Source: Actinomycetota bacterium
GTDB taxonomy: Bacteria; Actinomycetota; UBA4738; HRBIN12
Reading direction: 5' to 3'
NCBI GenBank assembly: GCA_039933515.1
Contig: JBDTNY010000127.1
Coordinates: 7,160-71,159, forward strand
DNA: 64,000 nt
The position numbers and the translations under genes are program-made. The notes beneath the pieces were generated by a model. The model did no database searches. It was not told the origin of the DNA and worked only from the letters and a program-made list of their open reading frames with translations. Below, in pieces: positions 29,270 to 64,000 of the stretch (positions are counted from its first letter, which is position 1; each line of letters begins with the position of its first letter).

Positions 29270-29453
29270 GGTCGTGTCGGGCGGCGCGCCGGCGGCGATG
29301 CCGGTGCGCCTCCATGGTAGGGACGGTCCCTCCGTGCCGCAACCGGCGCGATCCAGGCAGGTCCCGTGCAGGCGGGATCCGGGCGACGCGGTACCCTTTG
29401 GGCCGCCCGGCGTCGTCAGATCGCCGCGCACCATGCCACGCGAAGGGGGAACC

Positions 29454-30077: not shown

Positions 30078-30089
30078 TCGGCGTGGCGC

Positions 30090-31947: not shown

Positions 31948-32045
31948 GGCGCGACTCCTCCCCCGACCCGCCCGGTCGGCCGAGCGCAAGCTACAGGCTG
32001 GGCCATCGGGTGTCCACCCTGGCCGGGCGGCCGCGACAAGGACCT

Positions 32046-32741: not shown

Positions 32742-32745
32742 GCGC

Positions 32746-36206: not shown

Positions 36207-36274
36207 CGCTCCCTGTCTCCCGTGCGGGGAGGCACCGAGCCTCGGCCCGGCCCCCCCGCAACCGCCCCTGCCGT

Positions 36275-37309: not shown

Positions 37310-37379
37310 CAGAGATCCCCTCCTCGTTGTGGACGTCGCATCGAATGTAGGGATGCCAGGTAGCCGCCCCGTAGCCCGG

Positions 37380-37401
37380 AGATGAACGGAAGATGAACGT
37401 C
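37380..37401 (-). promoter_or_regulatory. candidate PHO box: two direct repeat units GTTCATC with 11-bp periodicity in the pstS/sensor-kinase divergent promoter
   Basis: Plus strand AGATGAACGGAAGATGAACGT. Read on the pstS strand it is ACGTTCATCTTCCGTTCATCT, two GTTCATC units 11 bp apart, 70-90 nt upstream of pstS. It matches the actinobacterial PhoP/RegX3-type repeat GTTCACC. Confidence 0.4.
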
Positions 37402-37471
37402 CCGCGCCGGCATCGCGTCGAAACGCTGGCGCGTGGACCTCCCCGTGAGCACCGGCTTCTAGACTGCGGGC

Positions 37472-49526: not shown

Positions 49527-51143
49527 ATGCAGCCCATGCAGACACCTTCTTGGACCACCCCGTCGCAGACGGACAGCGCCTTCCTCGACCTTCGCGACTA
49601 CGCGGGCGTGCTTCGCCGGCGCAAGAAGCTGGTGGGCATGGTCGCACTGGTCGCGGTCGGCTGCGCGGTGGCGTGGACCGCCGTGCAACCGCGCATCTAC
49701 TCGGCCACCGCCGAGATCCTGGTCCGCCCGCCGATCCTGGCCGTGGGCGACACCGCGTCGCCGCAGACCCTGAACGTGGAGAACGAACGGCAGATCGCGA
49801 TGTCGGTTCCCGTCGCCGCGCTCGCCGCCGAAGGCATGGGCGGGGGGCTCACCCCCCGCGAGATGGTCGCTGCGACCGACGTCACCGTTACCAAGGATGC
49901 CGACGTGCTCCAGATCCGGTTCAGCGACCGCGACGCGCGGCTCGCCGGCCGCGGCGCGAATGCGGTGGCTGAGGCCTACCTCGCATACAAGACCCAGCAG
50001 GCACGAGCGACGATCGACGGGAAGGTCGCCGTGCTCAAGGAGCGCCTCGCGGCCCTCGCCGGCAACAAGGGCAGCTCCGCCTCGATCGCCCTGCTCAACC
50101 AGCAGCTGGCCCAGGTGCAATCGACCACGATCGACGCGGGCGAGGTCCTGGCGGCAGCCGAGACCCCTGGCTCGCCAGGCAGCCCCAACCTGCCGATGAA
50201 CATCGCGCTCGCGCTGTTCGCCGGCATGCTCGTCGGGGTGTTCGGCGCGTTCGCGCGCGAGCGCATGGACGATCACCTGCACGGGCGCATGGATCTCGAG
50301 GGCACGATCGGGGCTCCCGTCATGACGATGATCCCGACCGTCCCCGGCTGGCGCGACCGCGGAGAGACGCACCTGGTGACGCTCGAGTCGCCACGCAGCC
50401 CCGCCGCCGAGGCGTATCGGACCTTGCGCACCAGCATGTTCGTCGCCGCCGCCGAACACGGCATCAAGAGTGTGATGGTGGTGTCGGCGCTCGCCGGCGA
50501 GGGCAAGAGCACCACGGCCGCGAATCTGGCGGTGACGCTCGCGCAGGCCGACAAGAAGGTCGTGCTCGTCTCGGCCGACCTTCGCCGCCCACGGGTCCAT
50601 GAGTTCTTCGGTCTGGCCGGCGACCGGGGCCTCTCAGAGGTGCTCGAAGGCGATCGGCGGGCATGGGAGTCATTGCGCAGCGGGCGCATCGACAACCTCT
50701 GGGTGATGTCGAGCGGGAAGATCTCGAGTCACCCGACCGAGCTGCTGCAGTCACACGAGATGCAGGAGCTGATCGCCGAGCAGCGTGAGGTCGTCGACTT
50801 CATCGTGATCGACTGTCCGCCGGTGCTCGCCGTGGCCGACGCGCTCGTGCTGGCGCCGCTCGTGGACTGCGTGCTGTACGTCGCCGACGCCGGCGCCACG
50901 CCGCGCGGAGCGGTCGTGCAGGCACGGGCGCAGCTCGACCAGGTCGGGGCGCGGGTCTTGGGGGCCGTCCTGAACAACGTCGACGCCGGCTCGACGGGCT
51001 ATGCCTACTACGGCGCGCAGTACGGGTACGACGAGGGCCCGGCCTCGCCCGTCACGATCGCCGGGGACATGTGGACCGCCGGGAACAAGGCCGGCAGGCT
51101 GAGCGGCCGGCTCGAGGCGCTTCGCCGCCGGTCCGCCAGCTGA
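49527..51143 (+). CDS. polysaccharide-biosynthesis tyrosine autokinase (Wzc/CpsD-like: chain-length determinant plus BY-kinase)
   Basis: Wzz-like N-terminus with 2 TM, Walker A AGEGKSTTAANLA, Walker A' VVLVSADLRRP, Walker B VVDFIVIDCPP, C-terminal Tyr-rich tail (YAYYGAQYGY). Confidence 0.8.
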   Translation: MQPMQTPSWTTPSQTDSAFLDLRDYAGVLRRRKKLVGMVALVAVGCAVAWTAVQPRIYSATAEILVRPPILAVGDTASPQTLNVENERQIAMSVPVAALAAEGMGGGLTPREMVAATDVTVTKDADVLQIRFSDRDARLAGRGANAVAEAYLAYKTQQARATIDGKVAVLKERLAALAGNKGSSASIALLNQQLAQVQSTTIDAGEVLAAAETPGSPGSPNLPMNIALALFAGMLVGVFGAFARERMDDHLHGRMDLEGTIGAPVMTMIPTVPGWRDRGETHLVTLESPRSPAAEAYRTLRTSMFVAAAEHGIKSVMVVSALAGEGKSTTAANLAVTLAQADKKVVLVSADLRRPRVHEFFGLAGDRGLSEVLEGDRRAWESLRSGRIDNLWVMSSGKISSHPTELLQSHEMQELIAEQREVVDFIVIDCPPVLAVADALVLAPLVDCVLYVADAGATPRGAVVQARAQLDQVGARVLGAVLNNVDAGSTGYAYYGAQYGYDEGPASPVTIAGDMWTAGNKAGRLSGRLEALRRRSAS

Positions 51144-51145
51144 CC

Positions 51146-53107
51146 ATGGCGACAGCCGTCGACCAGCACCTCAGACGGCACTGGCTCCGGCGGATCGTCG
51201 CGGTCGCGACGATCCTTGCGCTCTGCGCCGGAGCCCTGGTCGCGTTCGCGATCGTCGCGACCACCGGCCTGCGTCGCGACCTCGAAAGGGGTGCCGCCGC
51301 GCTTCACAAGGGCCGCCAGGCGGTGAGCTACGGCAACCTCATCGACGCCCGCGCGTCATTCGAAGACGCGGCGCGGCGGTTCGATGACGCCGCCGCCGCA
51401 GGTCACGCAGGCGCGTCCGGCATGGTGGCGGCACTGCCGATCCTCGGCCGCAACGTCGATGTGGCCCAAGGGGTGGCGCTCGCGGGGCGCGATCTCGCCG
51501 ATGCGGGCACCCAGCTCGTCGACGTGGTTGCGCAGCTCCCTGACGGACTCGGCTCGCTCGCGCCACAGAACGGCGTGATCCCGCTGGAGGCGATCTCCGG
51601 CCTGGGCGGGGACATCGCCGGCGTGGCCCGGCGAGCGCATCGTGCCGTCGAGCTGATCGAAGGCACCCCGTCCACCATGCTCTTCGGATCTGTGGCCCAG
51701 GCGCGGTTCGAGGCCGTGCGCGACGTGCGGCGGGTCGCCGACGCGCTGGACGCCACCACAGCCCTGCTCGGCGGCCTGCCTTCGTTCGCGGGCGCCCAGG
51801 GGCCTCGCCACTACTTCTTCGTGGCCGAGAGCCCCGCGGAAGCGCGCGGCACGGGCGGGATCTGGGGTGCCTGGGCGATCCTCACGGTCGAGCAGGGGCG
51901 GTTCTCGTTCTCGGAGTTCCAACCGATCCAGCGGCTTCCCGACCTCCCGCCGGGGCGGGTGCCCGCGCCGAACCCCGACTATCGGCGCAACTACGACCAG
52001 TACGGCGGGGCGGGGTTCTGGCGGAACATGAATCTCACCCCCGACTTCCCTTCCGCGGCTCGTGCGGTCCTCGCGGCCTACGAGATCGTGGACGGCCGCG
52101 CCCTCGACGGGGTGCTCAGCGCCGATCCGTTCGCGCTCGCAGAGCTGCTCGACGTCACCGGCCCAACGAGGATCCCCAGTCTCGGCGTGACGCTCGGGGC
52201 CGGCAACGTCGTCGACTTCATGACGAACGAGGCCTACATCCGCTTCCCGGGCGCGTCGCTCGAGCGCAAGGGACTACTGGGCACGGTGGCAGGAGGTGCA
52301 TTCGAACGCTTCCTCGGGATGGACGTCCACGGGGTGGCGCGTCTCCGCGCCGTCGCCGACGCGGTGGCCGGGGGGCACCTGAAGATATACACCACGGACG
52401 CGGCGATGCAGGATGGCCTCGGCCTCGCCCATGCGGACGGTGCCTTCGCCGCTCCCCGGGGCGACATGGTGGCAGTCGTGCTGAACAGCCGCTCGGGCAG
52501 CAAGGTCGACTTCTATGCCCATCGAACGGTCGACTACGACGTGGTGCTCGGTGGCAATGGCGAGGCGATCGGCACGACCTCCGTGGCGATCCGCAACGAC
52601 GCGCCCGATCACGGGTTGCCGGGATTCGTGATCGATCCGCTGGCTGCCGGCGGTGAACCCGGCGACAACATCGCGCTCCTCACCGTGAGCTGCCCCGACC
52701 CCTGCGACCTCGTCGAGGCCCAGCGTGACGGACGCGACCAGGGCATGCGCGTGGGCTCCGAACTCGGCTTCCCCTGGTACCAGGACTTCTTCACGATCCC
52801 GTCGGGGGACACGGGCACGCTCCGCCTGGTCACCAAACGCGAAGGGGTGTGGGCGGGGAACTCGTCGGAAGGGAGCTACCGCCTCACCGTGCTCACGCAG
52901 ACCTCGATCGCGCCCACCGAGGTCTCGGTCACGATCCATGCTCCCGAGGGCACGCGGATCACGTGGGCGAGCGAGGAGATGGCGGTGGACGGAGGTACCG
53001 CGGTCTGGCGCGGCACGCCGGGACCCCGGCTCGAGCTGGAGGTCCGTTTCTCTGCACCGGTGCCGCTGCGGTGGTGGCGCAACCTCGCGCGCGAGCTCCC
53101 ATTCTAG
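51146..53107 (+). CDS. DUF4012-domain protein (N-terminally anchored, EPS-locus associated)
   Basis: ATG at 51146 directly follows the wzc TGA. N-terminal TM, then a long extracellular region. This family is common in actinobacterial EPS loci. Confidence 0.55.
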   Translation: MATAVDQHLRRHWLRRIVAVATILALCAGALVAFAIVATTGLRRDLERGAAALHKGRQAVSYGNLIDARASFEDAARRFDDAAAAGHAGASGMVAALPILGRNVDVAQGVALAGRDLADAGTQLVDVVAQLPDGLGSLAPQNGVIPLEAISGLGGDIAGVARRAHRAVELIEGTPSTMLFGSVAQARFEAVRDVRRVADALDATTALLGGLPSFAGAQGPRHYFFVAESPAEARGTGGIWGAWAILTVEQGRFSFSEFQPIQRLPDLPPGRVPAPNPDYRRNYDQYGGAGFWRNMNLTPDFPSAARAVLAAYEIVDGRALDGVLSADPFALAELLDVTGPTRIPSLGVTLGAGNVVDFMTNEAYIRFPGASLERKGLLGTVAGGAFERFLGMDVHGVARLRAVADAVAGGHLKIYTTDAAMQDGLGLAHADGAFAAPRGDMVAVVLNSRSGSKVDFYAHRTVDYDVVLGGNGEAIGTTSVAIRNDAPDHGLPGFVIDPLAAGGEPGDNIALLTVSCPDPCDLVEAQRDGRDQGMRVGSELGFPWYQDFFTIPSGDTGTLRLVTKREGVWAGNSSEGSYRLTVLTQTSIAPTEVSVTIHAPEGTRITWASEEMAVDGGTAVWRGTPGPRLELEVRFSAPVPLRWWRNLARELPF

Positions 53108-53192
53108 CGGCGCCGGTCACCGCCGAACCGGTCGACGACACGCAGGAACGCCCCGGGCTACCCCCGAGGCGTTCCGAAAGCGATCGTGATGG

Positions 53193-53432
53193 TTAGGCGG
53201 CGTGGGCCGCGCGACGGCGGGCCACGAACAGCGCTACGAGCCCGACGACCACGAGGATCGCCGCCACTAGGAGAGGGGTGGAGACATTGCCACCCGTGAA
53301 GGCGGTGCCTCCGCCGCTGCCGCTCACCACGGTGGTCGGGCTAGGGCTGTTCGTGTAGTCCGCAAGCGCGGTACCCGCCAGCGTGACAACCATGACGACG
53401 GCCCCCACGAGGATTCCGGCCATCCGCTTCAT
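53193..53432 (-). CDS. small secreted peptide (79 aa): signal peptide, Gly/Ser/Thr-rich core, C-terminal TM plus basic tail
   Basis: MKRMAGILVGAVVMVVTLAGTALA/DYTNSPSPTTVVSGSGGGTAFTGGNVSTPLLVAAILVVVGLVALFVARRRAAHAA. ATG at 53432 is preceded by GAAGGGA. A 7-bp hairpin (53463..53480) sits in the leader. Confidence 0.45.
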   Translation of the reverse strand: MKRMAGILVGAVVMVVTLAGTALADYTNSPSPTTVVSGSGGGTAFTGGNVSTPLLVAAILVVVGLVALFVARRRAAHAA

Positions 53433-53611
53433 GCTGGTGGATCCCTTCTGTCGCCTGTACGGCTCTCGGACGAGAGCCTCGATACGAGACCGATGATAGG
53501 CCGTTCGGGCTAACCGTCGCAACCACCGAAGGCCCATTCATGCAGGTCCAAAGGGCTTATACCCATAGGAGGGCCTCAAGAAACACGGTTGCGCCGGTCG
53601 ATACCACCGGT

Positions 53612-53803
53612 GTGAAGTTCAGGGCCTCTACCCTCGATCGAGTCGCCACGGCGTATGCCGAAGCTGTGGCCGCGGGCGACCTCGAGGCCGCCGAGGGCTG
53701 GTTCGCGACCGCCCGCTACGTGGCCGATCGCGAGGCCGAGCGCGAACGGGCGCCCCGCGCGTCGTGGCCCCCCGCACGAGCCCGTCGCCTCTCGCTTCGC
53801 TGA
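53612..53803 (+). CDS. hypothetical small protein (63 aa) - weak call
   Basis: GTG-initiated, high GC3 (VKFRASTLDRVATAYAEAVAAGDLEAAEGWFATARYVADREAERE..). No RBS and no recognisable family. Confidence 0.2.
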   Translation: MKFRASTLDRVATAYAEAVAAGDLEAAEGWFATARYVADREAERERAPRASWPPARARRLSLR

Positions 53804-53984
53804 CGGGATGCACCATCGTTCGGACGAGGACGTTCGGCCGTTCCCGCAGGCCAGGCCCACTGCTAGGCTCGCGCTACGGCGCTTCCCCCGACCCGCGCCG
53901 CCCTCGATGCCCCTGCCCTCGTCCGACCGAGTGAGTCTTCCTGTTCGCCCCCCGTGGGCGCCCTCGGGGCCTGCCTCCGACTCG

Positions 53985-55322
53985 ATGACCCGGGTCCGGC
54001 GCCACGCGGCTTGGCCGCTCCTCATGCTCTTTCCCATGCTGCCCCTGTGGTGGCTACTGGGCGTGGCGGGCTTCATCCTGCCGCTGATGGCGGTGCCGCT
54101 CATCGCGTCGCTGCTGGTCCGCCGGCGGATCACGGCCCCAAAAGGCATCGCGCTCTACCTGACGTTCCTGGTGTGGTGCGCGTTCTCGGCCACCCAGCTG
54201 AGCGACCCGAAACAGGCGCTCTCCCTCGTCTACCATGGGGGGATCTACGTGGCGGCCGGGGCGCTCTTCCTCTACGTCTTGAACCGCACGCGGCAGGAGT
54301 TGCCGACGGCCACCGTCGTCCGCTGCCTCGCCGTGTTCTTCGTGATCACGGTGGTCGGCGGCATCGTCGGGATGGTCATCCCGGCTGTCACGATCCCGAC
54401 CCCGGCCCGCGCGATGATGCCGGCACAGCTCCTGAACGAACGCTTCGTGAGCGACCTGGTCAGGGCCTCGACGTCGTCTGCCCGCGCGTTCGGCGCGTAT
54501 CCGATCCACCGACCCCAGGCGCCGTTCACCTACACGAACCAGTGGGGGGCGGCGTACGCGATGACGCTGCCCTTCGCGATCTGCGGGCTGGCCTTCGTGC
54601 GTCGCCGGCTCCATCGTGACCTGCTGCTGCTGGTGATCGTCCTCTCGGTCTTCCCGCTGGTCTTCTCCTTGAACCGCGGCGCGTGGCTATCGGTCGCCGC
54701 GGGCCTCGCGTACGCGACGCTGCGCTCAGCCCGCGGCCGCAACGCCCAACTGCTGAAGATCGCGGCACTCGGGTCGCTCGTGGTCGGCGCGTTGCTGTTC
54801 CTGACACCGCTGGGCGAGATCATCATGATCCGTCTGACGAACGGGTACGGCGATGCCCACCGAGCGGAGCTGTACGCGCAGTCGATCGAGCTCGTGCGCG
54901 CGTCGCCGATCCTCGGGCACGGGGCGCCCGTGATGGTGTCGGGGAACCTTTCGGCGGGTACCCACGGCCAGCTCTGGAACATCCTCGTCTCGCAGGGGGT
55001 CCCCGGACTCGTCCTGTTCGTCGGCTGGCTCGGGTGGGCCTGGTGGAAGGCCTCGAGACCGCTGGCGCCCACCGCCTCCGGCGACCGGTGGGTGCGGCTC
55101 TGGTGCGAGGTTGCGATCTTCGTCGCGGTCGTTCAGCTGCCGTTCTACGACCTGCTGCCGTGGGGCCTTCCGATCGCCATGGTGGCGGCGGCGCTTGCGT
55201 GGCGCGAGGGCGATCAGCTCGCAGGTCCCGCACGGCGGGCGGCCTCAGCGGCTACGGCCGCGGCGCCGTCCGCGGCGAACCGCGGGTTCGCCGGGGCACC
55301 GCGGACGGCGGCGCCCAGGTAG
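53985..55322 (+). CDS. O-antigen ligase / Wzy-like polysaccharide polymerase family membrane protein
   Basis: Multi-TM protein with a Wzy_C-type segment (LSLNRGAWLSVAAGLAYATL). Track ORF 53655 is extended. Start ATG at 53985 is uncertain. Confidence 0.6.
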   Translation: MTRVRRHAAWPLLMLFPMLPLWWLLGVAGFILPLMAVPLIASLLVRRRITAPKGIALYLTFLVWCAFSATQLSDPKQALSLVYHGGIYVAAGALFLYVLNRTRQELPTATVVRCLAVFFVITVVGGIVGMVIPAVTIPTPARAMMPAQLLNERFVSDLVRASTSSARAFGAYPIHRPQAPFTYTNQWGAAYAMTLPFAICGLAFVRRRLHRDLLLLVIVLSVFPLVFSLNRGAWLSVAAGLAYATLRSARGRNAQLLKIAALGSLVVGALLFLTPLGEIIMIRLTNGYGDAHRAELYAQSIELVRASPILGHGAPVMVSGNLSAGTHGQLWNILVSQGVPGLVLFVGWLGWAWWKASRPLAPTASGDRWVRLWCEVAIFVAVVQLPFYDLLPWGLPIAMVAAALAWREGDQLAGPARRAASAATAAAPSAANRGFAGAPRTAAPR

Positions 55323-56521
55323 CGAAGGCCCACCTCCGCGACATGCACCCCGAGCGTGAGCTCGATCTGCTCGGGACGGCAGCCGAACGCTCGAAGGAGC
55401 ACCGCCCCAGCCTCGCGCGCTTGGCCGAACGCCTCAGCCACGGAACGGCGCGCACCGATGAATGCCCGCTGGAAGCAGAAGTGCGGCAGGTCGAGCCCGG
55501 CGGGCACGTCGTAGCCCGCGTGCTCCCAATCCCATGCGACCACCCCGCCGTCGTCGATCCCGAGGTTCCAGGGCGACCAGTCGCCGTGCCAGCCGCCGTG
55601 CTCCAGCTCGATCCCCGAGACCCGGTCGAGCGCGTCGAGGAGATCGCCGATCGCGACGGCGAGGGCGGGATCGGCTCCGGTCCGGGCCGCATCCTCCCAG
55701 GTGGCGCGGAGCCGCTCGCGCACCGGCGACTCGGCGTAGGTCGACGAGCCGGTGCTCCCGAGGCGTTCGACGACCTCTCGGGTCGCGGCAACCGGCGGCG
55801 GTGACGCGGCACGCCACCGTCGGATCGACGCGGGCAACGGCGCACTGACGACGAGGCGGTGACCCCCCCAGGCGCCTGCCTCCCTCAGTCGTGGCGCGAC
55901 GACGGTTCCCGCAGATCCCGCCATCGCGGACAACGCGATCGCCTCGGCAGCCAAACGCTCGTCGGTCGCGGTGTTCCACCCCACCTTGGCGTAGGCCAGG
56001 GTGGCGCCATCGCCATCGACGACCTGCACGACCGGCTTGCGCGAGGGGGACGGTGGGCGCACGTTCACCACCAGGGAAACCGGGACCTCGAGTAGCTCCT
56101 CGAGCGCTGCGGCGAGCCGTTGGCCGCGCGGCGCCGCGAGCGACATCTGCGCTCCCGGCGCCCCGTAAACCAGCAGCTGGTCGCGGAAGAACGTGCCGCC
56201 CATGCCCGCGCCGATCACCGCGGCCGCCGCCCTGCGCCCCAATCGTGCTCCGCCCGACCTCGTGCCGGCGCCGGCAGCGAGCGCCCCGGCGCCCGTTGCA
56301 CGTTCAGCCGGTACGAGGACCCTGGGAGCCCGGGCGTTAGGCACCACGCGGTAGCGCTCGAGGACGTCGGTGCCAGAAGGTGGCTGTTCCAGCGTCACCC
56401 CGATACCGTCGACACCCCCCCACAAGACATCGGCGATCCAGACGAGATCGGAGCTCGCGCCCGGGCCGAGGGTCGTCCGCATGTCGGTCACGGCCGCAAG
56501 GCTACGCCCCCGGAGGAGCAC
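55214..56521 (-). CDS. phosphotransferase-family protein (APH/choline-kinase-like)
   Basis: Brenner motif HGDWSPWN plus DWEHAG. The 3' end overlaps the Wzy-like gene by 109 nt (convergent). Confidence 0.55.
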   Translation of the reverse strand: MLLRGRSLAAVTDMRTTLGPGASSDLVWIADVLWGGVDGIGVTLEQPPSGTDVLERYRVVPNARAPRVLVPAERATGAGALAAGAGTRSGGARLGRRAAAAVIGAGMGGTFFRDQLLVYGAPGAQMSLAAPRGQRLAAALEELLEVPVSLVVNVRPPSPSRKPVVQVVDGDGATLAYAKVGWNTATDERLAAEAIALSAMAGSAGTVVAPRLREAGAWGGHRLVVSAPLPASIRRWRAASPPPVAATREVVERLGSTGSSTYAESPVRERLRATWEDAARTGADPALAVAIGDLLDALDRVSGIELEHGGWHGDWSPWNLGIDDGGVVAWDWEHAGYDVPAGLDLPHFCFQRAFIGARRSVAEAFGQAREAGAVLLRAFGCRPEQIELTLGVHVAEVGLRYLGAAVRGAPANPRFAADGAAAVAAEAARRAGPAS

Positions 56522-56542
56522 CGCGGCCGGAAGATCACGGGT

Positions 56543-57745
56543 TCAGCCGCGGGGCAGACCGAGCGCGTAGATCCTGCCGTCGCGCACGCCGACGAACAGG
56601 CGTCCGTCGGAGATCGCGGGCGAGGTGCTGATCCCGCGAGAGAAGAACCCGCCCTCGAACTTCCAGCCCGAGTTCCACAGTTCGCCCCCCGTGGCGGCAT
56701 CGAGCGCATATAGACGGTGATCGAACGACCCGAGGAACAGGATGCCACCGGCGTATGAGGGCGACGACGTGCTGTAGTCGGCGAGCGTCGCCCGCCATGC
56801 GATGCGGCCGTCGGCGACGTCGAGGGCGACCGCGTGGCCCGTCATCGTTCCGTTCGCCAAGGTCTCTCCCGTCGTCACGTAGACGCGGCCCTCGGCGACG
56901 GCCGGGGCCATCCGTACGACGCCGGCGGCGCCGTCGATCAGCACGTCGGCCCGCCACTGCTCGCGGCCGGTCGCCGCGTCGAACGCGTACACCCTCCCCC
57001 GGTCGGTGCCCACGAACACGCGACCGCCCGCGACGGCGGGAACGCCCCGTCCGCGCCCCCAGATGTCCGCGCTCCACTCGAGCTCGCCGGTCGTCGCGTT
57101 CAAGGCAAACACTCGCTGTTGGTCGGAAGCCACGAAGACGAGGCCGTTCGATGCGGCCGCAGCGTCCCACACGGTCCACGTGTGGTAGCTCCAATTCCGC
57201 CCACCCGTGGCCGCGTCGAACGCAGAGACGTCGCCACCTCGCGACCCCACGATCACCTGGCCCCCGGTGACGAGCGGTGGCGCCGTCACGGCGCCACCCA
57301 GATCCTGGCTCCAGCGCACCGCACCCGTCGCCGCCGCGAACGCGTACAGGGATCCGCTGTCCGAGCCCACGAATACGGAGCCACCGGCGACCGCCGGTGA
57401 GGACCGGACGGGGCCGCCGGTCTGGCGCGACCACAAGATGACGCCGGCGTTGGCACCCAGGGCGTAGAGCCGGCCGTCGTCGGAGCCCACGTAGATCACG
57501 CCGTTGACGACGGCGGCCGACGAGTTCACGCCTTCGGCTGAGGGCCGGGTCGCGCGCGACCACTTGATCTCGAGGCGGTCGAGCCGATCTGCGGGGATCG
57601 CCGGACCGGTGGCCACGCCCGTCCTCGCCGGGTTCGCGTGGTACTGGGGCCAGTCCGCCCGTGCGGGCACGGAGAGTGAGAGCGTCAACGCGCACACCGC
57701 CACCGCGGTGCGGGCGGCTGCGCGCCGGGGGGATCGACCGAACAT
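56543..57745 (-). CDS. secreted PQQ-like beta-propeller repeat protein
   Basis: Signal peptide (AVAVCALTLSLSVPARA) followed by at least 7 blades with G(R)(L/V)YA(F/L)DAATG motifs. Confidence 0.65.
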   Translation of the reverse strand: MFGRSPRRAAARTAVAVCALTLSLSVPARADWPQYHANPARTGVATGPAIPADRLDRLEIKWSRATRPSAEGVNSSAAVVNGVIYVGSDDGRLYALGANAGVILWSRQTGGPVRSSPAVAGGSVFVGSDSGSLYAFAAATGAVRWSQDLGGAVTAPPLVTGGQVIVGSRGGDVSAFDAATGGRNWSYHTWTVWDAAAASNGLVFVASDQQRVFALNATTGELEWSADIWGRGRGVPAVAGGRVFVGTDRGRVYAFDAATGREQWRADVLIDGAAGVVRMAPAVAEGRVYVTTGETLANGTMTGHAVALDVADGRIAWRATLADYSTSSPSYAGGILFLGSFDHRLYALDAATGGELWNSGWKFEGGFFSRGISTSPAISDGRLFVGVRDGRIYALGLPRG

Positions 57746-57836
57746 GGGTACCTCCAGGTACCGGGGGAAGGCCTGTCCAGGCTACCGGGAACCGTGCGGG
57801 CGGGACCGGACCGGTCTGCCTGCCGGCCGGCAGGGA

Positions 57837-59420
57837 TCAGACTTCGACAGCCTCGAGGATCTCGCTCGGCTCGGCGATCTCCGGTGCCGTTCCACCTCGG
57901 AGCGCCCCGAGGAAGGCGTCCATCCGCAACGCGCTCCGCCACCGCAGGAGCACGGCGGTGTAGGCCGCGCCCGCCGTGATGAGGAACACCGCGAGACCGG
58001 GAACGGTGGCCCCGAGCGTGAGGCGCACCGTAAGCCCGATCCCGCCCACGCAGAGCAACGCGGCCGCGACGACGATCGCATACCCACGCCCGAACGGACG
58101 CATGCCGAGGAACCACCAGACCTCGGCCAAGGCCAGCAGGTTGTCCACGACGATCGACACCGCCCACGCCACCGCCGCTCCCTCCATGCCGAACCGCGGG
58201 ATCAGCAGCAGGTTGAGGCCCACGTTCAGTCCGATCGCGACGGCCGTGTTCACGAGGTTCCACGAGCTCTTGCCGCCCATCAACAGAACCACGGTGACGT
58301 TGCCCGTCCCCAGGTTCACGAGCATCGCGACGGCGAGGATCGCCAGGGCGCCCTGGCCCGACGTGAACGCGGGCCCGAACACCCTCAACAGGAGCGGAGC
58401 GAAGCACGCGAGGGTCAGGAACAGCGGCCATGAGACGGCGATCAACCACCACGTCGCGGTCTGATACAGGGTCTGGGCTCCGTCCCGATCCTCACGAGCG
58501 AGCAATCCGGCGATCTGTGGCGCGATGGCGAGCCGCACCGCCTGGAGCGCAAAGGTCCCGACCATCACGACTCGGCTGACCGCGGCGTAGACGCCCACCT
58601 CGGCGGTCGGACGGAAGAGGCCGAGCAGGAGCACGTCGAACCACAGCACCGTGACCTGGAACGCGGCCGCGACCCCGCGGGGCGCTGAGAAGCGCCAGAA
58701 GGACCGCGCGATCGCGGCGAGCGAACGGGTCGGCACGCCCGTGGACCCGAGACGCCGGTGCAGCCGCGAGAGCGCGATCATCGCGGCGACACACGCCACG
58801 GCCTCGGGCAGCCCCCAGCCGGCGGCGATCCAAGCCGAGCCGAGACCGGCGGCCAGGGCCGGGGCGACGAGCACAGGCTTGAGCACGGGGGTGAGGACGC
58901 TGTCGATCGCGACGAACGGCACCATCGTGCCGAACCCGCGCGAGGCGGCGAGGGCGACCGTCGCCGTCGTGGCGACCGGCAGGAACGGCGCGAGCCCGCG
59001 GATGAACGCCGCTCCCTCGGCGCGATGGTCCCCCACGAACCAGATCGCGAGCCGGTCGGCGCCGAGCCACACGGCGAGTCCCATGACCGCGCCGGCGATC
59101 GCAGCAGGCACCAGGGCGACGGCGATGATCGTGCCGATCTCCTGCGTTCGACCCAGCGCGCGGGCCCTCGAGACGAACCGAACCACGCCGCTATCGGCTC
59201 CGAGCTCCGCGACGTTGGCTGCGATCGTGAATACCGCGATCGCGCCGAAGACCACCCCGGCGCCCGAGGGCCCGAGGGCCCGGGTGATCACGATCACGAG
59301 CACGAAGCCGAGTGCGCCGGCGAGCACGAGCCCCGCGAGGTTCAGCGTGCCCCCGCGGGCGACAGACCGAAGCTCGGGCCGCGGGACCGTCGAGACCGAG
59401 ACCCGGGGCTCAGACACCAC
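57837..59420 (-). CDS. polysaccharide-biosynthesis flippase (Wzx-like, MOP superfamily)
   Basis: About 14 TM protein with a Wzx-type N-terminus (LNLAGLVLAGALGFVLVIVITRALG). Start set at GTG 59420/59417, overlapping the GT2 stop. Confidence 0.65.
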   Translation of the reverse strand: MVSEPRVSVSTVPRPELRSVARGGTLNLAGLVLAGALGFVLVIVITRALGPSGAGVVFGAIAVFTIAANVAELGADSGVVRFVSRARALGRTQEIGTIIAVALVPAAIAGAVMGLAVWLGADRLAIWFVGDHRAEGAAFIRGLAPFLPVATTATVALAASRGFGTMVPFVAIDSVLTPVLKPVLVAPALAAGLGSAWIAAGWGLPEAVACVAAMIALSRLHRRLGSTGVPTRSLAAIARSFWRFSAPRGVAAAFQVTVLWFDVLLLGLFRPTAEVGVYAAVSRVVMVGTFALQAVRLAIAPQIAGLLAREDRDGAQTLYQTATWWLIAVSWPLFLTLACFAPLLLRVFGPAFTSGQGALAILAVAMLVNLGTGNVTVVLLMGGKSSWNLVNTAVAIGLNVGLNLLLIPRFGMEGAAVAWAVSIVVDNLLALAEVWWFLGMRPFGRGYAIVVAAALLCVGGIGLTVRLTLGATVPGLAVFLITAGAAYTAVLLRWRSALRMDAFLGALRGGTAPEIAEPSEILEAVEV

Positions 59421-60348
59421 GGCCGGACCGGTTCGCCCAGGCCTCGACCGTCTCGGGACGCACGAGCCGGGCCGAGACCGCGAGCGCGAGGTATGGCCGC
59501 CGTTCGAGGGGCCGGCGTCGGATGCTCCGCCACGCCCAGCCCCGCGCATCCGACGGGCGGCCGAGCGCAGCTTGCGCGAACGCGAGACGGCCGTAGAGCC
59601 GTGCCGCGTTCCTCCGATCGACGAGCACCTCCGGGTGCTTGGCGGTCAGGTAGACGATCGCGTCCGCGATCGTTTGCCAGCGTGCGGTGAAGAACGAGTC
59701 CCCCGAGCGATACACGCGGACGAATGGTTTACGCACGGCCGTGATGTCCCCCACGGCGACCGCCCGCAACAGCCACTCGTAATCCTCCCCGTAGCTTCCA
59801 GGGATCGCCTCGTCGATCGGTCCGATCGTGGTCTCGAAGGCGCGACGCCGGACGACGACCGTCGAGGGGTGGATCTCGGTCGCCCGGGACCGTAGCAGGA
59901 CCCCGGGCGTCACGCGCTCGTGGGCGCAGACGCGCGCGATGCGGCGCTCCCCCGCCACGACCTCGATCCCCGTAACCGCCACGTCGGCGCCCGATGCCTC
60001 GAGCGCAGCGAGCTGATGAACGAGCTTGCCCGGAAGCCATTCGTCGTCGTCATCGCAGAACGCAAGCACCTCGCCGAACCCGCGTTCGGCCCCGGTGTTC
60101 CGCGCACCTGCGAGTCCCGGCGTTCGATCGTTGGACATGACGCGCAGCGAGCGGTCTCCTCCGTCGCGCGGCGCGACGTCACCGAGGTCGAACGCCGGGC
60201 TCTGGTCGAACACCACCAGGCATTCGACCGTGCCCGGGTACGCCTGCGACAGCACCGACCGGATCGCGCGGCGCAACAAGGCCGGGCGTTCGCGCGTGGC
60301 GATCACCACGCTCACGGACGGCCAGGAAGTGGAAGGTACCGCGCTCAT
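59410..60348 (-). CDS. glycosyltransferase family 2
   Basis: GT-A fold (SVVIATRERP, DxD CDDDDEW). ATG at 60348 is preceded by GAGG and overlaps the upstream sulfotransferase stop (ATGA). Confidence 0.75.
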   Translation of the reverse strand: MSAVPSTSWPSVSVVIATRERPALLRRAIRSVLSQAYPGTVECLVVFDQSPAFDLGDVAPRDGGDRSLRVMSNDRTPGLAGARNTGAERGFGEVLAFCDDDDEWLPGKLVHQLAALEASGADVAVTGIEVVAGERRIARVCAHERVTPGVLLRSRATEIHPSTVVVRRRAFETTIGPIDEAIPGSYGEDYEWLLRAVAVGDITAVRKPFVRVYRSGDSFFTARWQTIADAIVYLTAKHPEVLVDRRNAARLYGRLAFAQAALGRPSDARGWAWRSIRRRPLERRPYLALAVSARLVRPETVEAWANRSGRGV

Positions 60349-61262
60349 GCGGCTCGACCTCGATAGCCGCCGACGACACGGAGGGGCAAAGTGATCGCGC
60401 CGACGATCACGCGGTCGCGCCGTGGCATCTGGCTGCGCCATGCGTCGTCGGCCACGATCTCGACCGGCCCGGTGCGGAACCGCATGGGGTTCCCCGAGAT
60501 CGAGTGGTCGATGCCGAGCAGCGCGGTGCGTTCGTCGGCGAAGATCGGGGCGGTCGATGCAGCCCCCGTCTGCACGAGGATCCGGTGGGCCCACGGCCCG
60601 GGCGTGCGGACCACGTCCTCATACCGGGCGGCGGGACGCAGGGATCCGGGCGCCAGTCGGAGGATGGCGAAGGCCGCGTTCGTGGCGAGCCAGCGGACCG
60701 CCGTCCGCACGGGGCCGGTTCTGGCCATGAAGGAGTCGGGTGCGTCGGGGCGCGCGACGGTCTTGCCCCAGGAGAACGCTACGGCCCGGGGGTCGCGCAC
60801 GAGCTGCAGCAGTCGGACGTCGATCCCGGGTACGTGCCGCAGAACGGCAGCCGTTGAGACCTGCTTGGAGGAGTCGACGATCATGCTCGCACCCGCGGTG
60901 TGGGCCACCGCTTCATACACGCGCCCCAGCAAGTCGGCGTAGGCGCGCAGTCGCCGTGCGTAGGCCGGTGCGAGCCACGGAGCAAGCATCAGCGGCAGAT
61001 ACCGGTTCCGGTCGACCGATCGCTGCAGCCGAAGGGTCGCGGCCGCGTCGAGCGCGTCCCATCCCCCGACCGCGCGCCGGCCGACCTCTTCCCAGAACCC
61101 ACACCGTCGGAATGCCTCCCCGCACCCGCAGCGCTCGTCCCGCATGAGCCCGCGATCCCACAGGAACACGAACTCGCCCACGGAACACGTGCCGGGCGCC
61201 TGCCCGAGGATCCGGTCCACGAGGGTGCTCCCCGACCGTCCGAGCCCGCCGATGTAGAGCAC
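60345..61262 (-). CDS. sulfotransferase-family protein (PAPS-dependent, Sulfotransfer_3-like)
   Basis: 5'-PSB-like loop IGGLGRSGSTL and 3'-PB-like LVRDPRAVAFSW. Also a CGCGE..C cysteine cluster. Confidence 0.65.
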   Translation of the reverse strand: MLYIGGLGRSGSTLVDRILGQAPGTCSVGEFVFLWDRGLMRDERCGCGEAFRRCGFWEEVGRRAVGGWDALDAAATLRLQRSVDRNRYLPLMLAPWLAPAYARRLRAYADLLGRVYEAVAHTAGASMIVDSSKQVSTAAVLRHVPGIDVRLLQLVRDPRAVAFSWGKTVARPDAPDSFMARTGPVRTAVRWLATNAAFAILRLAPGSLRPAARYEDVVRTPGPWAHRILVQTGAASTAPIFADERTALLGIDHSISGNPMRFRTGPVEIVADDAWRSQMPRRDRVIVGAITLPLRVVGGYRGRAA

Positions 61263-61270
61263 AGGAAGGC

Positions 61271-62767
61271 TCAGGACCTCTCACCCCACAGGGCGTACCC
61301 ATACATCGCGATGAGCGGAGCCGTGATCGCGGATACGACGGCCCATTGACGTGGGCGGAGCGACCGGCGCCATTCGTCGTCGACCGTGACCTCGACGGGG
61401 CCCTGTAGCAGCCGCATCGGGTTCCCGTCGACCGTGTGATCGACCCCGAGGTCGGCGACGCCGTCGTGCATGAACGCGAGATCCCCTTCCGCGACGTCCA
61501 CCTCGGCCCATCGCAGGACGTCGGCGACGATCTGCGCAGGGCGGGCGACCAGGTCCTCGTATCGCAGGAACCGCGAGGGGACGCGCCGCGTACGCACCAC
61601 GTGTGCGGCCGCGTTGTACAACAGGTAGCGGATCGACGCGGCCGCCACGCCGTATCGCGGCAGATGATCGCGACCGTCGCCATCAGCGCGGACGATCTCC
61701 TTCTGCCACGAGAAGACCACCCCGCGCGGGTCCCGGACGAGATGGAGCACCCGCAGGTCGACGCCAGGGATCTGGCGCAACAACAGGGAGTGCGTGGGGA
61801 GCTTCGACGAGTCCACGATCACCCGGGCGCCGGTGACGTCGGCGATCGCGCGGTATAGCTGGCCCAGGAGCTCGGCGTATCGCATCACGTCGTGGTCGCC
61901 CACCGGTGCCGCACGCGCGGTCAGGACCCGCGGGATCGAGCCCGCACGATCGACCCTCGCGCGCAGGGCGGCCACCTCCGCGGCGTCCAGGCGGTCCCAT
62001 CCGCCGAACGCGCGCTCGCCGATCCGGCGCCAGAGCTCGCAGTCGTGGAAGCGCTCCCCGCAGCCGCAGAGTCGATCCTCGACCAAGCCGCGCTGCCAGA
62101 GCTCGCGGAGCTCGCCGATCGAACACACGCCCGGGACCTGCCCGAGGAGCCGGTCCAGCAGCGTGCTGCCGCTGCGCCCCCATCCCGTGATCGAGATCAC
62201 ACGCACCGTACGTGCCGCCGAGGCTTGAGTGGAGCCGGCGCCCCGCTCGAACAGCCGGTCGACGAGCCGGCCGAACCGCTCGGTCGCCGCGGCCGCAGGG
62301 TCGTGGCCCGCGAGATCGAGCCGGAACCCCTCGTCGCCTCCGAGCGCACGCTCGAGCAGCGACGTGAGCTCGTCGGCCGTCGACGCGAGATGCACCTGCC
62401 CGGCCTGGGCGACGCGCGTCGCGAACCGCACCTGGTGGTCGTCGACGTGCTCGCCGAGACCGCTCTGTCGCGGGATGCAGATCGGCACCACCCCTGACTC
62501 GCGCGCCCCCATGATCGTGCCCGGCCCGCCGTGACAGATGACCGCGACGGCCTCGGCCATCATCGCCTCCAGTTCGGCGACGGGCAGCAGATCGTGGCCC
62601 TCTGCGTGCACGGGAGGGCGCGAGGTGCCGTACTGGATCACCACGCGGGCACGGTGGGCGTTGGCGTTGGCCCAGTCGTCGACCCACGCGACGGCACGGT
62701 CGAACGGGTGGTGGTCGGTGCCCACCACGAGCATGACGAGCGGGAGCGGGAAAGAGGTGGCCATCAT
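61271..62767 (-). CDS. fusion protein: Alg13-like glycosyltransferase (GT28 C-terminal domain) plus sulfotransferase domain
   Basis: The N-terminal ~170 aa is Alg13/PssE-like (LVMLVVGTDHHPFDR, ICHGGPGTIMGA). The C-terminal ~320 aa is a paralog of the adjacent sulfotransferase (ITGWGRSGSTL, LVRDPRGVVFSW, CGCGERFHDC). Confidence 0.6.
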   Translation of the reverse strand: MMATSFPLPLVMLVVGTDHHPFDRAVAWVDDWANANAHRARVVIQYGTSRPPVHAEGHDLLPVAELEAMMAEAVAVICHGGPGTIMGARESGVVPICIPRQSGLGEHVDDHQVRFATRVAQAGQVHLASTADELTSLLERALGGDEGFRLDLAGHDPAAAATERFGRLVDRLFERGAGSTQASAARTVRVISITGWGRSGSTLLDRLLGQVPGVCSIGELRELWQRGLVEDRLCGCGERFHDCELWRRIGERAFGGWDRLDAAEVAALRARVDRAGSIPRVLTARAAPVGDHDVMRYAELLGQLYRAIADVTGARVIVDSSKLPTHSLLLRQIPGVDLRVLHLVRDPRGVVFSWQKEIVRADGDGRDHLPRYGVAAASIRYLLYNAAAHVVRTRRVPSRFLRYEDLVARPAQIVADVLRWAEVDVAEGDLAFMHDGVADLGVDHTVDGNPMRLLQGPVEVTVDDEWRRSLRPRQWAVVSAITAPLIAMYGYALWGERS

Positions 62768-62771
62768 CCGC

Positions 62772-63221
62772 CTACAGGAGCGTGCCGATCAGCTCGGCCC
62801 TGGGGTAGAGGGCGCGCTGCTCCTCCCACTGCACGCAGAACAGGTCGGTTATCGGGTAGCAGAGCCGGCCCGTGAGCGTGCGGGAGTCGATACGGTCGTA
62901 CACCTCGAGGTAGACGGTCTTGACCCGATGCAGCTTGGCCACCACGAAGAACGGGAACGCCACGCCGGCGCCGTCTGAGACGACGATGTCGGGGCGTTCG
63001 CGGCGGATCGTCCGCCAGCTGAGCCAGAGGTTGCGCACGGTGTTCTTCACATTCCGCGTGGTGGGGTGGTAGGCCCAGATCACGCGCTCGTCGGCCAGGA
63101 GCGAAACGGCGTCGCGGGTATCGAACGTCACCCAGAACCGGTCGTGAGGCTCGTACCAATTGTGGAGTCGCCACAGTTGTCCGAGGTGCCCCCCCGAGGA
63201 GCACACCAGCGCGATCTTCAC
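62772..63221 (-). CDS. Alg14-like glycosyltransferase subunit (PssD/EpsE-type)
   Basis: MKIALVCSSGGHLGQLWRL and TRNVKNTVRN match the Alg14 family. Directly upstream of the Alg13-like domain gene. Confidence 0.7.
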   Translation of the reverse strand: MKIALVCSSGGHLGQLWRLHNWYEPHDRFWVTFDTRDAVSLLADERVIWAYHPTTRNVKNTVRNLWLSWRTIRRERPDIVVSDGAGVAFPFFVVAKLHRVKTVYLEVYDRIDSRTLTGRLCYPITDLFCVQWEEQRALYPRAELIGTLL

Positions 63222-63222
63222 G

Positions 63223-64000
63223 TCAGTATGCCCCGCGCTTGGAGACCAGGACGGGGATCGTCTTGGCCAAGATGTAGAGGTCGTAGGCCAGGGACCAGTT
63301 CTCGATGTAGAAGAGGTCGAGCCGCACGCAGTCCTCGAACGAGAGGTCGCTGCGCCCGCTGACCTGCCACAGACCGCTGATGCCCGGCGGGACCTCGAGC
63401 CGATCGAACTGCCAGTCCTCGTACCGGGTGACCTCTTCGGGCAGCGGCGGTCGCGGGCCCACGAGGCTCATGTCGCCGATCACCACGTTCAGCAGCTGCG
63501 GCAGCTCGTCGAGGCTCACCTTCCGCAGGAACCGGCCCACCGCCGTCACGCGCGGGTCGTCCTTCAGCTTGAACATCAGGCCTTCGACGCCGTGCTGCTC
63601 GCGCAGCTCGTCCACCATCCGGTCGGCGCCCACCTGCATCGTGCGGAACTTCAGCATCGTGAACGGCCGCCCTCGATGACCGACGCGCTTCTGGCGGAAG
63701 AGGACGGGGCCGGGCGAGGTCAGCTTGACGGCGAGCGCGATCGTGGCCAGCACGGGCGAGACCAAGAGCAGGCCGAGGCCGGCCACCGCGATGTCGAACG
63801 CGCGCTTGATCACCACCTGGGTCCCGGTGAGACGCGCGGGGCGCAGCGACAGCGCGGTCACGCCCCCCAGCGACTGCACGGCGACGCGGCTCGAGAGCAC
63901 TTCGGGCAGCGTGGCGGTCACCCGCACCTCGACGCCCTCCAGCCGGACCGCCTTGGCCACGTAGCCCATCTCGAAGGCCGAGAGCGCGCTCGCCGCCACG
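63223..64000 (-). CDS. undecaprenyl-phosphate sugar phosphotransferase (WbaP/CpsE-like priming transferase), partial - N-terminus beyond window
   Basis: Bac_transf C-terminal domain (KRAFDIAVAGLGLLLVSPVL, GRPFTMLKFRTM, DELPQLLNVVIGDMSLVGPRP, SDLSFEDCVRLDLFYIENWSL). The track start at 63999 is only an internal Met. Confidence 0.8.
   Translation of the reverse strand, partial: VAASALSAFEMGYVAKAVRLEGVEVRVTATLPEVLSSRVAVQSLGGVTALSLRPARLTGTQVVIKRAFDIAVAGLGLLLVSPVLATIALAVKLTSPGPVLFRQKRVGHRGRPFTMLKFRTMQVGADRMVDELREQHGVEGLMFKLKDDPRVTAVGRFLRKVSLDELPQLLNVVIGDMSLVGPRPPLPEEVTRYEDWQFDRLEVPPGISGLWQVSGRSDLSFEDCVRLDLFYIENWSLAYDLYILAKTIPVLVSKRGAY

Follow-up and report, generated by a model that had tools for sequence, protein, structure and literature searches.

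A candidate locus for a sulfated polysaccharide in an Actinomycetota genome, with a sulfotransferase domain fused to one half of a split glycosyltransferase

The 64,000-nucleotide stretch of an Actinomycetota genome analyzed here (contig JBDTNY010000127.1 of assembly GCA_039933515.1; the whole stretch is called the window) carries at its right end a Wzx/Wzy-type polysaccharide locus with two sulfotransferase (ST) domains of the kind that uses 3'-phosphoadenosine-5'-phosphosulfate (PAPS), one of which is fused to half of a split glycosyltransferase (GT). We consider it probable that this locus makes a Wzx/Wzy-dependent heteropolysaccharide whose repeat unit receives sulfate, while still on its lipid carrier, from the GT-tethered ST and its paralogue, with PAPS supplied from elsewhere in the genome and a kinase adding a further modification. 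The core of this reading, a Wzx/Wzy operon with two PAPS-type STs and a sulfated polymer as its candidate product, was already proposed in an initial annotation of the DNA, and hidden Markov model (HMM) thresholds, fold, motifs, and GT fusions now agree on it. What is new is the GT-ST fusion, an ST family marked by a cysteine triad, a kinase partner and the lack of a second ST type, WpsH, while a cluster of the same general kind, wps-1, was proposed in 2026.

As the window has a G+C content of ~70%, mechanical lists of open reading frames (ORFs) are full of spurious frames. Genes were selected by codon-position GC, which supports twelve genes between 49.5 kb and the right edge of the window, with a third-position GC (GC3) of 0.79-0.95. 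They are given here from the right edge leftward, with lengths in amino acids (aa) and the supporting evidence in brackets; handles such as L030 denote related loci in other genomes, and the Wps names refer to wps-1.

63223..64000, minus strand: WbaP-type priming transferase, C-terminal catalytic domain (PF02397 Bac_transf)
62772..63221, minus strand: PssD/Cps14F (Alg14-like) split-glycosyltransferase partner (NF041549, Alg14)
61271..62767, minus strand: PssE/Cps14G (Alg13-like)-ST fusion (Glyco_tran_28_C and Sulfotransfer_3)
60345..61262, minus strand: standalone ST of the WpsB family, 305 aa (Sulfotransfer_3)
59410..60348, minus strand: GT2 glycosyltransferase, start ATG 60348 (PF00535)
57837..59420, minus strand: Wzx-type flippase, start GTG 59417 or 59420 (Polysacc_synt, MatE)
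56543..57745, minus strand: secreted PQQ_2/BamB-like beta-propeller, 400 aa (PF13360)
55214..56521, minus strand: APH-fold (eukaryotic-like) kinase of the WpsI family (conserved catalytic set and AF2/Foldseek)
53655..55322, plus strand: Wzy-like polymerase or O-antigen-ligase-like membrane protein (PF04932 Wzy_C)
53193..53537, minus strand: small conserved ORF, 114 aa (syntenic homologue in L030)
51071..53107, plus strand: DUF4012 protein, 678-aa ORF, likely start ATG 51146 (PF13196)
49527..51143, plus strand: Wzc-like co-polymerase and bacterial tyrosine (BY) autokinase, 538 aa (TIGR01007, Wzz, AAA_31/ParA P-loop)

All eleven genes named in the initial annotation were found where it had placed them, each supported by codon-position GC, and its domain names all lie above the curated Pfam or NCBIfam cut-offs except for the APH-like gene. 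Scans for tRNAs, Rfam families, promoters and terminators gave nothing informative.

The case for sulfation begins with the two ST domains. The HMM confirmation that had been suggested for them was obtained, with Sulfotransfer_3 (PF13469) scores of 38.1 bits for the standalone ST and 53.6 bits for the fused domain (residues 191-426) against a cut-off of 27. The previously listed motifs are likewise present in both domains, as GRSGSTL, VRDPR(G/A)V..FSW and CGCGE-x4-C, and the standalone ST reads GRSGSTL, GE, CGCG-x5-C and VRDPRAVAFSW. The two domains are old paralogues with 44% identity (E 2e-80). For each of them L002-L007 hold an orthologue in the corresponding position, to which it is more similar than to the other window domain, and this suggests two distinct sulfation specificities. 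Invariant in 20 homologues are the 5'-phosphosulfate-binding (PSB) loop GxGRSGSTL, G218-E219 some 17 residues further on, DSSK, HLVRDxRGVxxSW with its R-x7-S 3'-phosphate motif, RYE, HTxxGNP, and the cysteines C234, C236 and C243. In TPST2 and CurM-ST the catalytic Glu lies at this place, and E219 is the candidate catalytic base here. In a census of 115 near-full-length ST domains from related loci, RSG(S/T) followed by GE was found in 107 and RDxRx4S in 102, while all but one (114/115) have CxC-x5-8-C after the GE motif, in 98 cases in the CGCG form. By this conservation the cysteine triad is a signature of the window's ST family; it lies on the minus strand at 62047-62076 in the fusion (C234-C243) and at 61115-61144 in the standalone ST. 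Binding of a metal, as a knuckle, and service as a redox site are possible roles of the triad, and no fourth conserved ligand was identified.

A search of PDB sequences with both ST proteins returned insignificant matches only (E 0.12-0.53) and a fold search was therefore needed. The AF2 model of the PssE-ST fusion, which of the two ST domains covers the fused one, was built on a 20-sequence alignment and has a mean pLDDT of 87, with two well-folded domains and a disordered linker at residues 172-183. The best Foldseek matches of the fused ST are all PAPS-dependent STs, namely CurM-ST (4gbm), the tyrosylprotein sulfotransferases (TPSTs) TPST1 (5wrj) and TPST2 (3ap3), an Alicyclobacillus ST (3rnl), Stf9 (2z6v), Stf1 (2zq5) and OLS-ST (4gox), with probability 1.0, target-normalized template modeling (TM) scores of 0.36-0.65 and identities of 13-20%. 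TPST1/2, CurM-ST/OLS-ST and Stf1/Stf9, whose acceptors are tyrosine, a polyketide beta-hydroxyl and trehalose glycolipids, respectively, share with the window ST not only the fold but also the Arg-type PSB loop (P/G-RSG-S/T-TL), an acidic residue ~17-20 residues after it, and the R-x7-S 3'-phosphate-binding motif. The window family differs from them in the CxC-x5-8-C insertion after GE, which was not seen in the TPST and CurM stretches aligned to the window STs, a comparison limited to those stretches. Profile and motifs of both domains and the modeled fold of the fused one support them as genuine PAPS-type sulfotransferases.

The second line of evidence is the company that these domains keep. 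In the fusion protein, a PssE half (~10-145) is joined through the linker to an ST domain at ~188-495. Its N-terminal part scores 41.3 bits with Glyco_tran_28_C (cut-off 22, residues 11-123), matches the NCBIfam models PssE/Cps14G and WelK, although with 58.6 bits it stays under the NF041548 cut-off of 120, and has the fold of the nucleotide-sugar-binding (C-terminal) halves of GT-B enzymes by Foldseek. The gene before it encodes the PssD partner (NF041549 120.3 bits against 110; Alg14 59.4 against 27). The arrangement resembles that of PssD/PssE in Rhizobium leguminosarum, Cps14F/Cps14G in Streptococcus pneumoniae and WelK in Sphingomonas, all of them split or fused Alg14/Alg13-like beta-1,4-glycosyltransferases, and as in these systems the pair of genes is adjacent and follows a priming transferase. 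PssE, Cps14G and WelK, however, are without a C-terminal ST domain. We found no described PssE/Alg13-sulfotransferase fusion in the literature.

The fusion is by no means peculiar to the window. Among species represented by one genome each in GTDB, at least 541 loci encode a relative, nearly all in Actinomycetota, and the best 80 of these come almost entirely from metagenome-assembled genomes (MAGs) of Actinomycetes or Acidimicrobiia, with a few cultured strains (e.g., Nocardioides jiangsuensis and Plantactinospora solaniradicis). The best 120 protein clusters for the fusion all contain the ST domain and nearly all of them the PssE domain as well (PF04101 and PF13469), and their sources are nearly always metagenomes or MAGs named as Actinomycetota. 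When the standalone ST was used in an exhaustive HMMER search, the matches with E<=1e-30 formed 2,176 clusters at 50% identity, a number that rises to 5,402 for E<=1e-10. The ST family is thus large and uncharacterized, and no rarity. The same cassette was seen in L025, L050 and L067, from MAGs labeled Verrucomicrobiales, Burkholderiales and Deltaproteobacteria, which reflects either binning contamination or horizontal transfer out of Actinomycetota.

Gene context was surveyed by tblastn of the window proteins against the best 80 loci, 49 of which are at least 15 kb long (the long loci). PssE is fused to the ST in 31 of the 80, is a separate gene with the ST directly after it in 21, stands apart from it in 3 and is absent in 25. 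There is one ST domain of the window family in 49 loci, two in 25 and three in 5. PssD was found in 35 of the 49 long loci, always directly upstream of PssE; the corresponding counts are 40 for GT2, 40 for the kinase, 38 for Wzy, 33 for Wzc and 32 for Wzx. The lineage of the standalone ST shows the same tendency on its other side. Among ten multidomain relatives sampled, six are fused to the downstream GT2 (five ST-GT2 and one NTP_transf_5-ST-GT2), while two are PssE-ST, one is PAP2-ST and one has the ST only. Judged on these architectures, the family is repeatedly welded to a flanking glycosyltransferase predicted to build the repeat unit, either as PssE-ST or as ST-GT2. As the STs are fused or adjacent to these flanking enzymes, the acceptor would be the growing lipid-linked oligosaccharide at the cytoplasmic face of the membrane, and this is the strongest in silico argument available. 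Further members of the ST family are ST-GT2 proteins of ~635 aa, an NTP_transf_5-ST-GT2 protein of 950 aa, a PAP2-ST protein (P0365), and tandem ST-ST proteins of ~655-665 aa with two matched stretches; these architectures are represented by P0308, P0335, P0345, P0381, P0415 and P0320, and by P0008, P0016 and P0306.

Gene packing is consistent with a single, tightly packed and translationally coupled operon from WbaP to Wzx. The gaps are 1 nt between WbaP and PssD, 4 nt between PssD and the PssE-ST fusion and 8 nt between the fusion and the standalone ST, whose stop codon overlaps the true GT2 start (ATG 60348) in an ATGA; GT2 and Wzx overlap by 8 or 11 nt depending on which Wzx start is used (GTG 59417 or 59420). 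The initial annotation had described overlaps of 4-11 nt throughout this stretch, which is accurate for two junctions, the other three being gaps of 1-8 nt, and its claim of one operon stands, with the genes packed by overlaps or by gaps of no more than 8 nt. A 91-nt gap separates Wzx from the beta-propeller gene and a 21-nt gap separates the latter from the kinase gene. The GT2 protein (PF00535) scores 73.4 bits against 23.3, and the C-terminal domain of WbaP (Bac_transf) scores 228 bits against 27.

The borders of the locus can be drawn on both sides. To the left of Wzc are pheA, a second secreted beta-propeller and a rhomboid protease, then a long phosphate-regulon block and, beyond it, metabolic genes unrelated to the locus. 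As these left neighbors, the phosphate regulon among them, are genes outside the locus, it starts at ~49.5 kb. On the right, Tad/Flp pilus genes lie immediately upstream of WbaP in the fully syntenic L004 (2602-7936) and in the close relative L030 (997-4503). The two loci share CpaB/RcpC and a TadZ-like ATPase, to which L004 adds TadA and two TadB/C genes and L030 a TadE/G-like gene. Since these genes precede WbaP in both relatives, WbaP is most likely the first gene of the operon here too, and a pilus locus probably lies just past the right edge of the window. Full-length WbaP homologues have 491-513 aa in L002, L004, L006 and L030, and by synteny only the N-terminal ~250 residues of WbaP would fall outside the window. 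The initial annotation had the locus continue beyond the right edge; these residues are probably all that is left over, and the relatives have tad genes there.

Of the products named in the initial annotation, the kinase is the one for which profile searches fell short. Pfam APH gives 16.1 bits, below the cut-off of 23.2, so that the initial naming as an APH-like phosphotransferase fails at the level of the profile, but it stands on the full catalytic set and on a kinase fold. In the NCBI annotation the product is ABI572_11495, a hypothetical protein whose length of 425 aa fits a start at GTG 56491. K169, E183, H302-G-D304-x4-N309 and D321 are invariant in 24 homologues, and the AF2 model (pLDDT 93.5, pTM 0.91) is matched by Foldseek with probability 1.0 to MPH(2') macrolide 2'-phosphotransferase, maltokinase, glucosamine kinase, fructosamine-3-kinase and APHs, with corramycin phosphotransferase and homoserine kinase among the other fold neighbors. 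With its presence in 40 of the 49 long loci the kinase is a signature partner of the ST cassette, and its family extends to cultured Micromonospora, Pilimelia, Paractinoplanes and Actinoplanes friuliensis. We infer an active kinase whose substrate would be either a repeat-unit sugar or a precursor. A role as a substitute adenosine 5'-phosphosulfate (APS) kinase was considered and rejected, as the fold neighbors are kinases of sugar or antibiotic hydroxyls and a canonical APS kinase adjoins the cluster in Paractinoplanes.

The remaining products include the export and polymerization machinery. The Wzx protein scores 46.2 bits with Polysacc_synt (cut-off 28.2) and 35.1 bits with MatE, and the Wzy-like protein 41.3 bits with Wzy_C (cut-off 31.7). 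The first ~110 residues of the latter ORF are rich in Pro, Arg and Ala and for this reason are probably not translated, with the true start near the Met at about codon 111; its C-terminal tail is of low complexity and rich in Ala, Pro and Arg. The convergent Wzy-like and kinase genes share 109 nt at their 3' ends (55214-55322). The Wzc-like protein has every trait of a BY-kinase and class 2 polysaccharide co-polymerase (PCP) that was tested, that is, a Wzz N-terminal domain (34.2 bits), a P-loop kinase domain (TIGR01007, 172.9 bits against 108), and a C-terminal Tyr cluster, GYAYYGAQYGY. DUF4012 (PF13196, 110.6 bits against 28) was found by tblastn with the window-derived probe in 2 of the 49 long loci. 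The in-operon beta-propeller (PF13360 PQQ_2, 187 bits) has a signal-peptide-like N-terminus, and its conservation in this place is limited to L002, L004 and L006, the closest syntenic loci (blastp identities of 46-54%). A second secreted beta-propeller of 499 aa, at 46967-48466 on the minus strand beyond pheA, has weak PQQ_2 and Beta-prop_ACSF4 matches and is 82% conserved beside the locus in L030; a functional link between the two propellers is possible. The small ORF at 53193..53537 gave no Pfam match and has a 90% identical homologue in the syntenic place in L030.

The closest described system is wps-1 of Actinoplanes missouriensis (AMIS_7280-7380), which was genetically dissected in a study published in Appl Environ Microbiol in June 2026 (PMC13390465). 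It encodes a GT2 (WpsA), an ST (WpsB), a GT26 (WpsC), a DUF4262 protein (WpsD), a GH26 (WpsE), a methyltransferase (WpsF), a Wzx (WpsG), a second ST (WpsH), a protein-kinase-like protein (WpsI), a Wzy (WpsJ) and a PCP (WpsK), and it is adjoined by AMIS_7390 of the sulfate-adenylyltransferase/APS-kinase family (PMC13390465). Knockouts of ST, kinase, Wzx, Wzy, PCP and AMIS_7390 all impair sporangium formation or spore release, and most single knockouts, including those of wpsH, wpsI and AMIS_7390, gave squashed sporangia that released 10^2-10^6 spores compared with 10^8; the authors propose a sulfated exopolysaccharide, which awaits verification (PMC13390465). The published gene order recurs in L083 of Paractinoplanes abujensis, which we used as the wps-1 equivalent by gene order and annotation, in place of the A. 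missouriensis sequence itself. The window STs are 43% (E 3e-79) and 41% (E 2e-63) identical to the WpsB equivalent of L083, and homology extends to the kinase (32%, E 3e-17), Wzx (37%), the WpsA-like GT2 (39%), Wzy (28%) and the PCP (29%). Since ST, kinase, Wzx, GT2, Wzy and PCP are all homologous to their L083 counterparts, the window locus is by sequence a homologous variant of the wps-1-type cluster. Both have the WpsB-type ST signature, GRSG(S/T)TL / GE / CGCG-x5-C / VRDxRGVxxSW. The initial annotation had presented the locus as a rarity, a view now overtaken by this published cluster type and by an ST family of thousands of members, mostly in Actinomycetota.

There are also differences. 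The window has a WbaP primer and the PssD/PssE split GT with its fused ST in place of a WecG-type GT26, and two WpsB-type STs with no WpsH-type (Sulfotransfer_1) ST. It lacks the GT26, GH26, methyltransferase and DUF4262 genes of wps-1 (Pfam scan of the locus genes) as well as the adjacent ATP-sulfurylase/APS-kinase gene, and unlike wps-1 it has DUF4012, a secreted beta-propeller and a BY-kinase domain on the PCP. A functional analogue is the xss (synechan) cluster of Synechocystis sp. PCC 6803, whose product has been shown by chemistry to be sulfated; our searches turned up no other bacterial cluster of this kind for which that holds. It too combines Wzx, Wzy and PCP with two ST genes, and its model has the lipid-linked repeat unit assembled and modified in the cytoplasm before flipping, as is proposed for the window (PMC8205485). 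The xss cluster differs in being cyanobacterial and diderm, in needing an outer membrane polysaccharide export (OPX) protein, and in having eight GTs, the XssQ/R/S regulators and separate ST genes, with no GT-ST fusion or APH-fold kinase reported (PMC8205485); the comparison is one of gene content and model. A literature search for chemically characterized sulfated exopolysaccharides from Streptomyces, Micromonospora or Nocardiopsis gave general reviews only.

The WpsH-type ST (Sulfotransfer_1, 60 bits) is present in 46 of 82 related loci, among them the closest syntenic ones (L002, L004, L006), and usually adjoins the kinase gene. Its slot in L004 (17014-17916) corresponds in the window to the 21-nt gap at 56522-56542. 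Cultured Micromonospora sp. DT233 (L082) has the PssD/PssE/ST/GT2 version together with Wzy, the kinase, a Sulfotransfer_1 ST and Wzx. Sulfate-activation genes were seen within 10 kb of the cassette in a minority of loci, namely cysDN in L023 (17421-19613) and L041 (214-2417), an APS-kinase fragment in L016 (21213-21386) and a fused ATP-sulfurylase/APS kinase in L083 (5264-6784), the last adjoining the cluster and 44% identical to E. coli CysC. The locus is also evolutionarily labile, as is seen in L030 (MAG MFD05674.bin.1.236). Its region 8003-13473 is collinear with window positions 51071-64000 and encodes WbaP (92% identity), PssD (92%), PssE (85%) and DUF4012 (80%), but its PssE is a standalone protein of 201 aa, and both ST domains, Wzx, the beta-propeller, the kinase, Wzy and Wzc are missing. 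The three separate indels suggest pathway decay in that lineage. L030 was considered as a natural sulfation-minus control and rejected, as the decayed locus is also without Wzx, Wzy, Wzc and the kinase.

Gene order, domain identities, the folds of ST and kinase, the catalytic motifs, the recurring ST-GT fusions and the kinship with the wps-1-type cluster are seen in the sequences and models. What the ST and the kinase act on, when sulfate is added, whether PAPS donates it and where the polymer ends up are inferred, and the pathway would run as follows. The WbaP-type enzyme would transfer a hexose-1-phosphate onto polyprenyl phosphate, and the split GT-B enzyme formed by PssD and PssE would add a second sugar, by family a beta-1,4-linked glucuronic acid or galactose. 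The PssE-tethered ST domain would then sulfate the nascent lipid-linked oligosaccharide in the cytoplasm in a PAPS-dependent manner, with the paralogous ST sulfating a second position and the translationally coupled GT2 adding one more sugar. The APH-fold kinase may phosphorylate a hydroxyl on one of the unit's sugars or on a precursor sugar. Wzx would flip the unit, Wzy would polymerize it and the Wzc-like BY-kinase/co-polymerase would set chain length, with DUF4012 and the secreted beta-propeller presumably acting outside the membrane.

Several observations weigh against this pathway. The solved folds nearest to the ST belong to enzymes that sulfate tyrosine or a polyketide intermediate rather than sugars (Foldseek). 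In A. missouriensis the knockout of wpsB, which belongs to the window's ST family, was mild, with a normal look and ten-fold fewer spores released, and the strong ST phenotype came from wpsH, the type that is missing here (PMC13390465). The sulfated product of this cluster type is moreover a proposal, also in that study (PMC13390465). The WpsH-type ST has left no remnant in the 64-kb window in tblastn searches with the L083 and L004 proteins, even at E=50; a degraded copy was also sought and only noise was obtained. PAPS-synthesis genes, which the initial annotation had suggested looking for nearby, are likewise absent from the window, in which probes with E. coli CysC, CysD and CysN detected no cysD, cysN or cysC, and among related loci only 2-3 of 80 have cys genes within 10 kb. 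Part of this bears on the idea that the pathway is incomplete or decaying in the source genome and yields no sulfated product. The missing WpsH-type ST, which the closest syntenic relatives have, the lack of PAPS genes nearby and the lability seen in L030, where WbaP, PssD and PssE are 85-92% identical and the STs, Wzx, Wzy, kinase and Wzc are lost, would fit such decay. All twelve ORFs, however, are intact with high GC3, the catalytic motifs are kept in both STs and in the kinase, and tight translational coupling is preserved, and we regard decay as quite improbable.

It could also be argued that the STs act on a tyrosine of a protein or peptide (as TPST or RaxST do), on a small molecule or on a lipid, with their place in the operon reflecting co-regulation only. 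The closest folds are indeed TPSTs and the CurM/OLS polyketide STs (target-normalized TM ~0.6, 16-20% identity), carbohydrate STs are absent from the top fold matches, and sequence matches in the PDB are insignificant. Against this, 31 loci have the ST covalently joined to a glycosyltransferase half, 21 have the two side by side, and in other lineages the ST is fused to GT2. The fold search, moreover, also matched Stf1 and Stf9, which are mycobacterial glycolipid STs, and no candidate gene for a peptide substrate was seen in the locus, which makes a non-sugar acceptor very unlikely in our view. In place of free exopolysaccharide, the locus may yield a sulfated lipid-linked oligosaccharide, a sulfated glycolipid, or a glycan that is anchored to the wall or belongs to a developmental matrix. 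Most of the STs known from actinobacteria and rhizobia produce sulfated glycolipids or lipo-oligosaccharides (PMC11625862; PMC8205485), the only genetically studied relative works in the sporangium matrix and not in free slime (PMC13390465), and Wzy_C is also the family of O-antigen ligases. The retention of Wzx, a Wzy-like protein and a Wzc-type BY-kinase together with the STs is, however, the signature of a polymerized surface or extracellular polysaccharide, and profile scans found no LCP-type wall ligase in the window; a product of this other kind therefore seems rather unlikely. We thus continue to favor a sulfated Wzx/Wzy heteropolysaccharide.

Some genes outside the locus are also of note. 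The phosphate-regulon block (26253-38626) encodes CHAD, Ppk1, PhoU_div with PitA, a PhoP-like regulator, PhoU, a Pst-type ABC ATPase and permease, a 663-aa PstS-like protein with a long N-terminal extension, and a PhoR-like histidine kinase. A cyanophycin synthetase of 970 aa (Cyanophycin_syn, ATP-grasp, Mur-ligase) at 13547-17253 on the minus strand adjoins a Peptidase_S51 (cyanophycinase-type) gene. Trehalose-6-phosphate synthase (GT20), followed by a GH15/trehalase-like hydrolase, lies at 6128-10406, with a Mur-ligase-like gene (4373-6076) and an MFS_3 transporter upstream of GT20.

Animals, algae and cyanobacteria are usually regarded as the makers of sulfated polysaccharides. The wps-1 study calls such polymers exclusive to cyanobacteria among bacteria (PMC13390465), which is too strong, as sulfated capsules or exopolysaccharides are reported for Vibrio, Cobetia and Pontiella. 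The cluster type described here is found in at least several hundred actinobacterial species, mostly as soil and sediment MAGs. It is a tentative possibility that Actinomycetota widely, in hundreds of mostly uncultured, terrestrial species, make sulfated surface polysaccharides by means of a dedicated module not described before, made up of GT-fused, Cys-triad STs and an obligate APH-fold sugar kinase. If this is true, sulfation would go hand in hand with synthesis on the lipid carrier. Sulfate would then be joined on the polymer by phosphate, or else phosphorylation would act as a gate for sulfation or elongation, in a loose parallel to Fam20B and the glycosaminoglycans of animals, and the view of bacterial sulfated polysaccharides as an essentially cyanobacterial or marine trait would be overturned. 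The question is open to direct test, since some carriers can be cultured (Micromonospora sp. DT233, Paractinoplanes abujensis and many Micromonospora species). Should the chemistry be confirmed, GT-ST fusions would provide compact parts for engineering sulfated glycans, and polyanionic sulfated matrices would be common in terrestrial Actinomycetota, which would matter for the binding of metals, for tolerance to desiccation, for the matrices of spores and sporangia and for the cycling of sulfur in soil.

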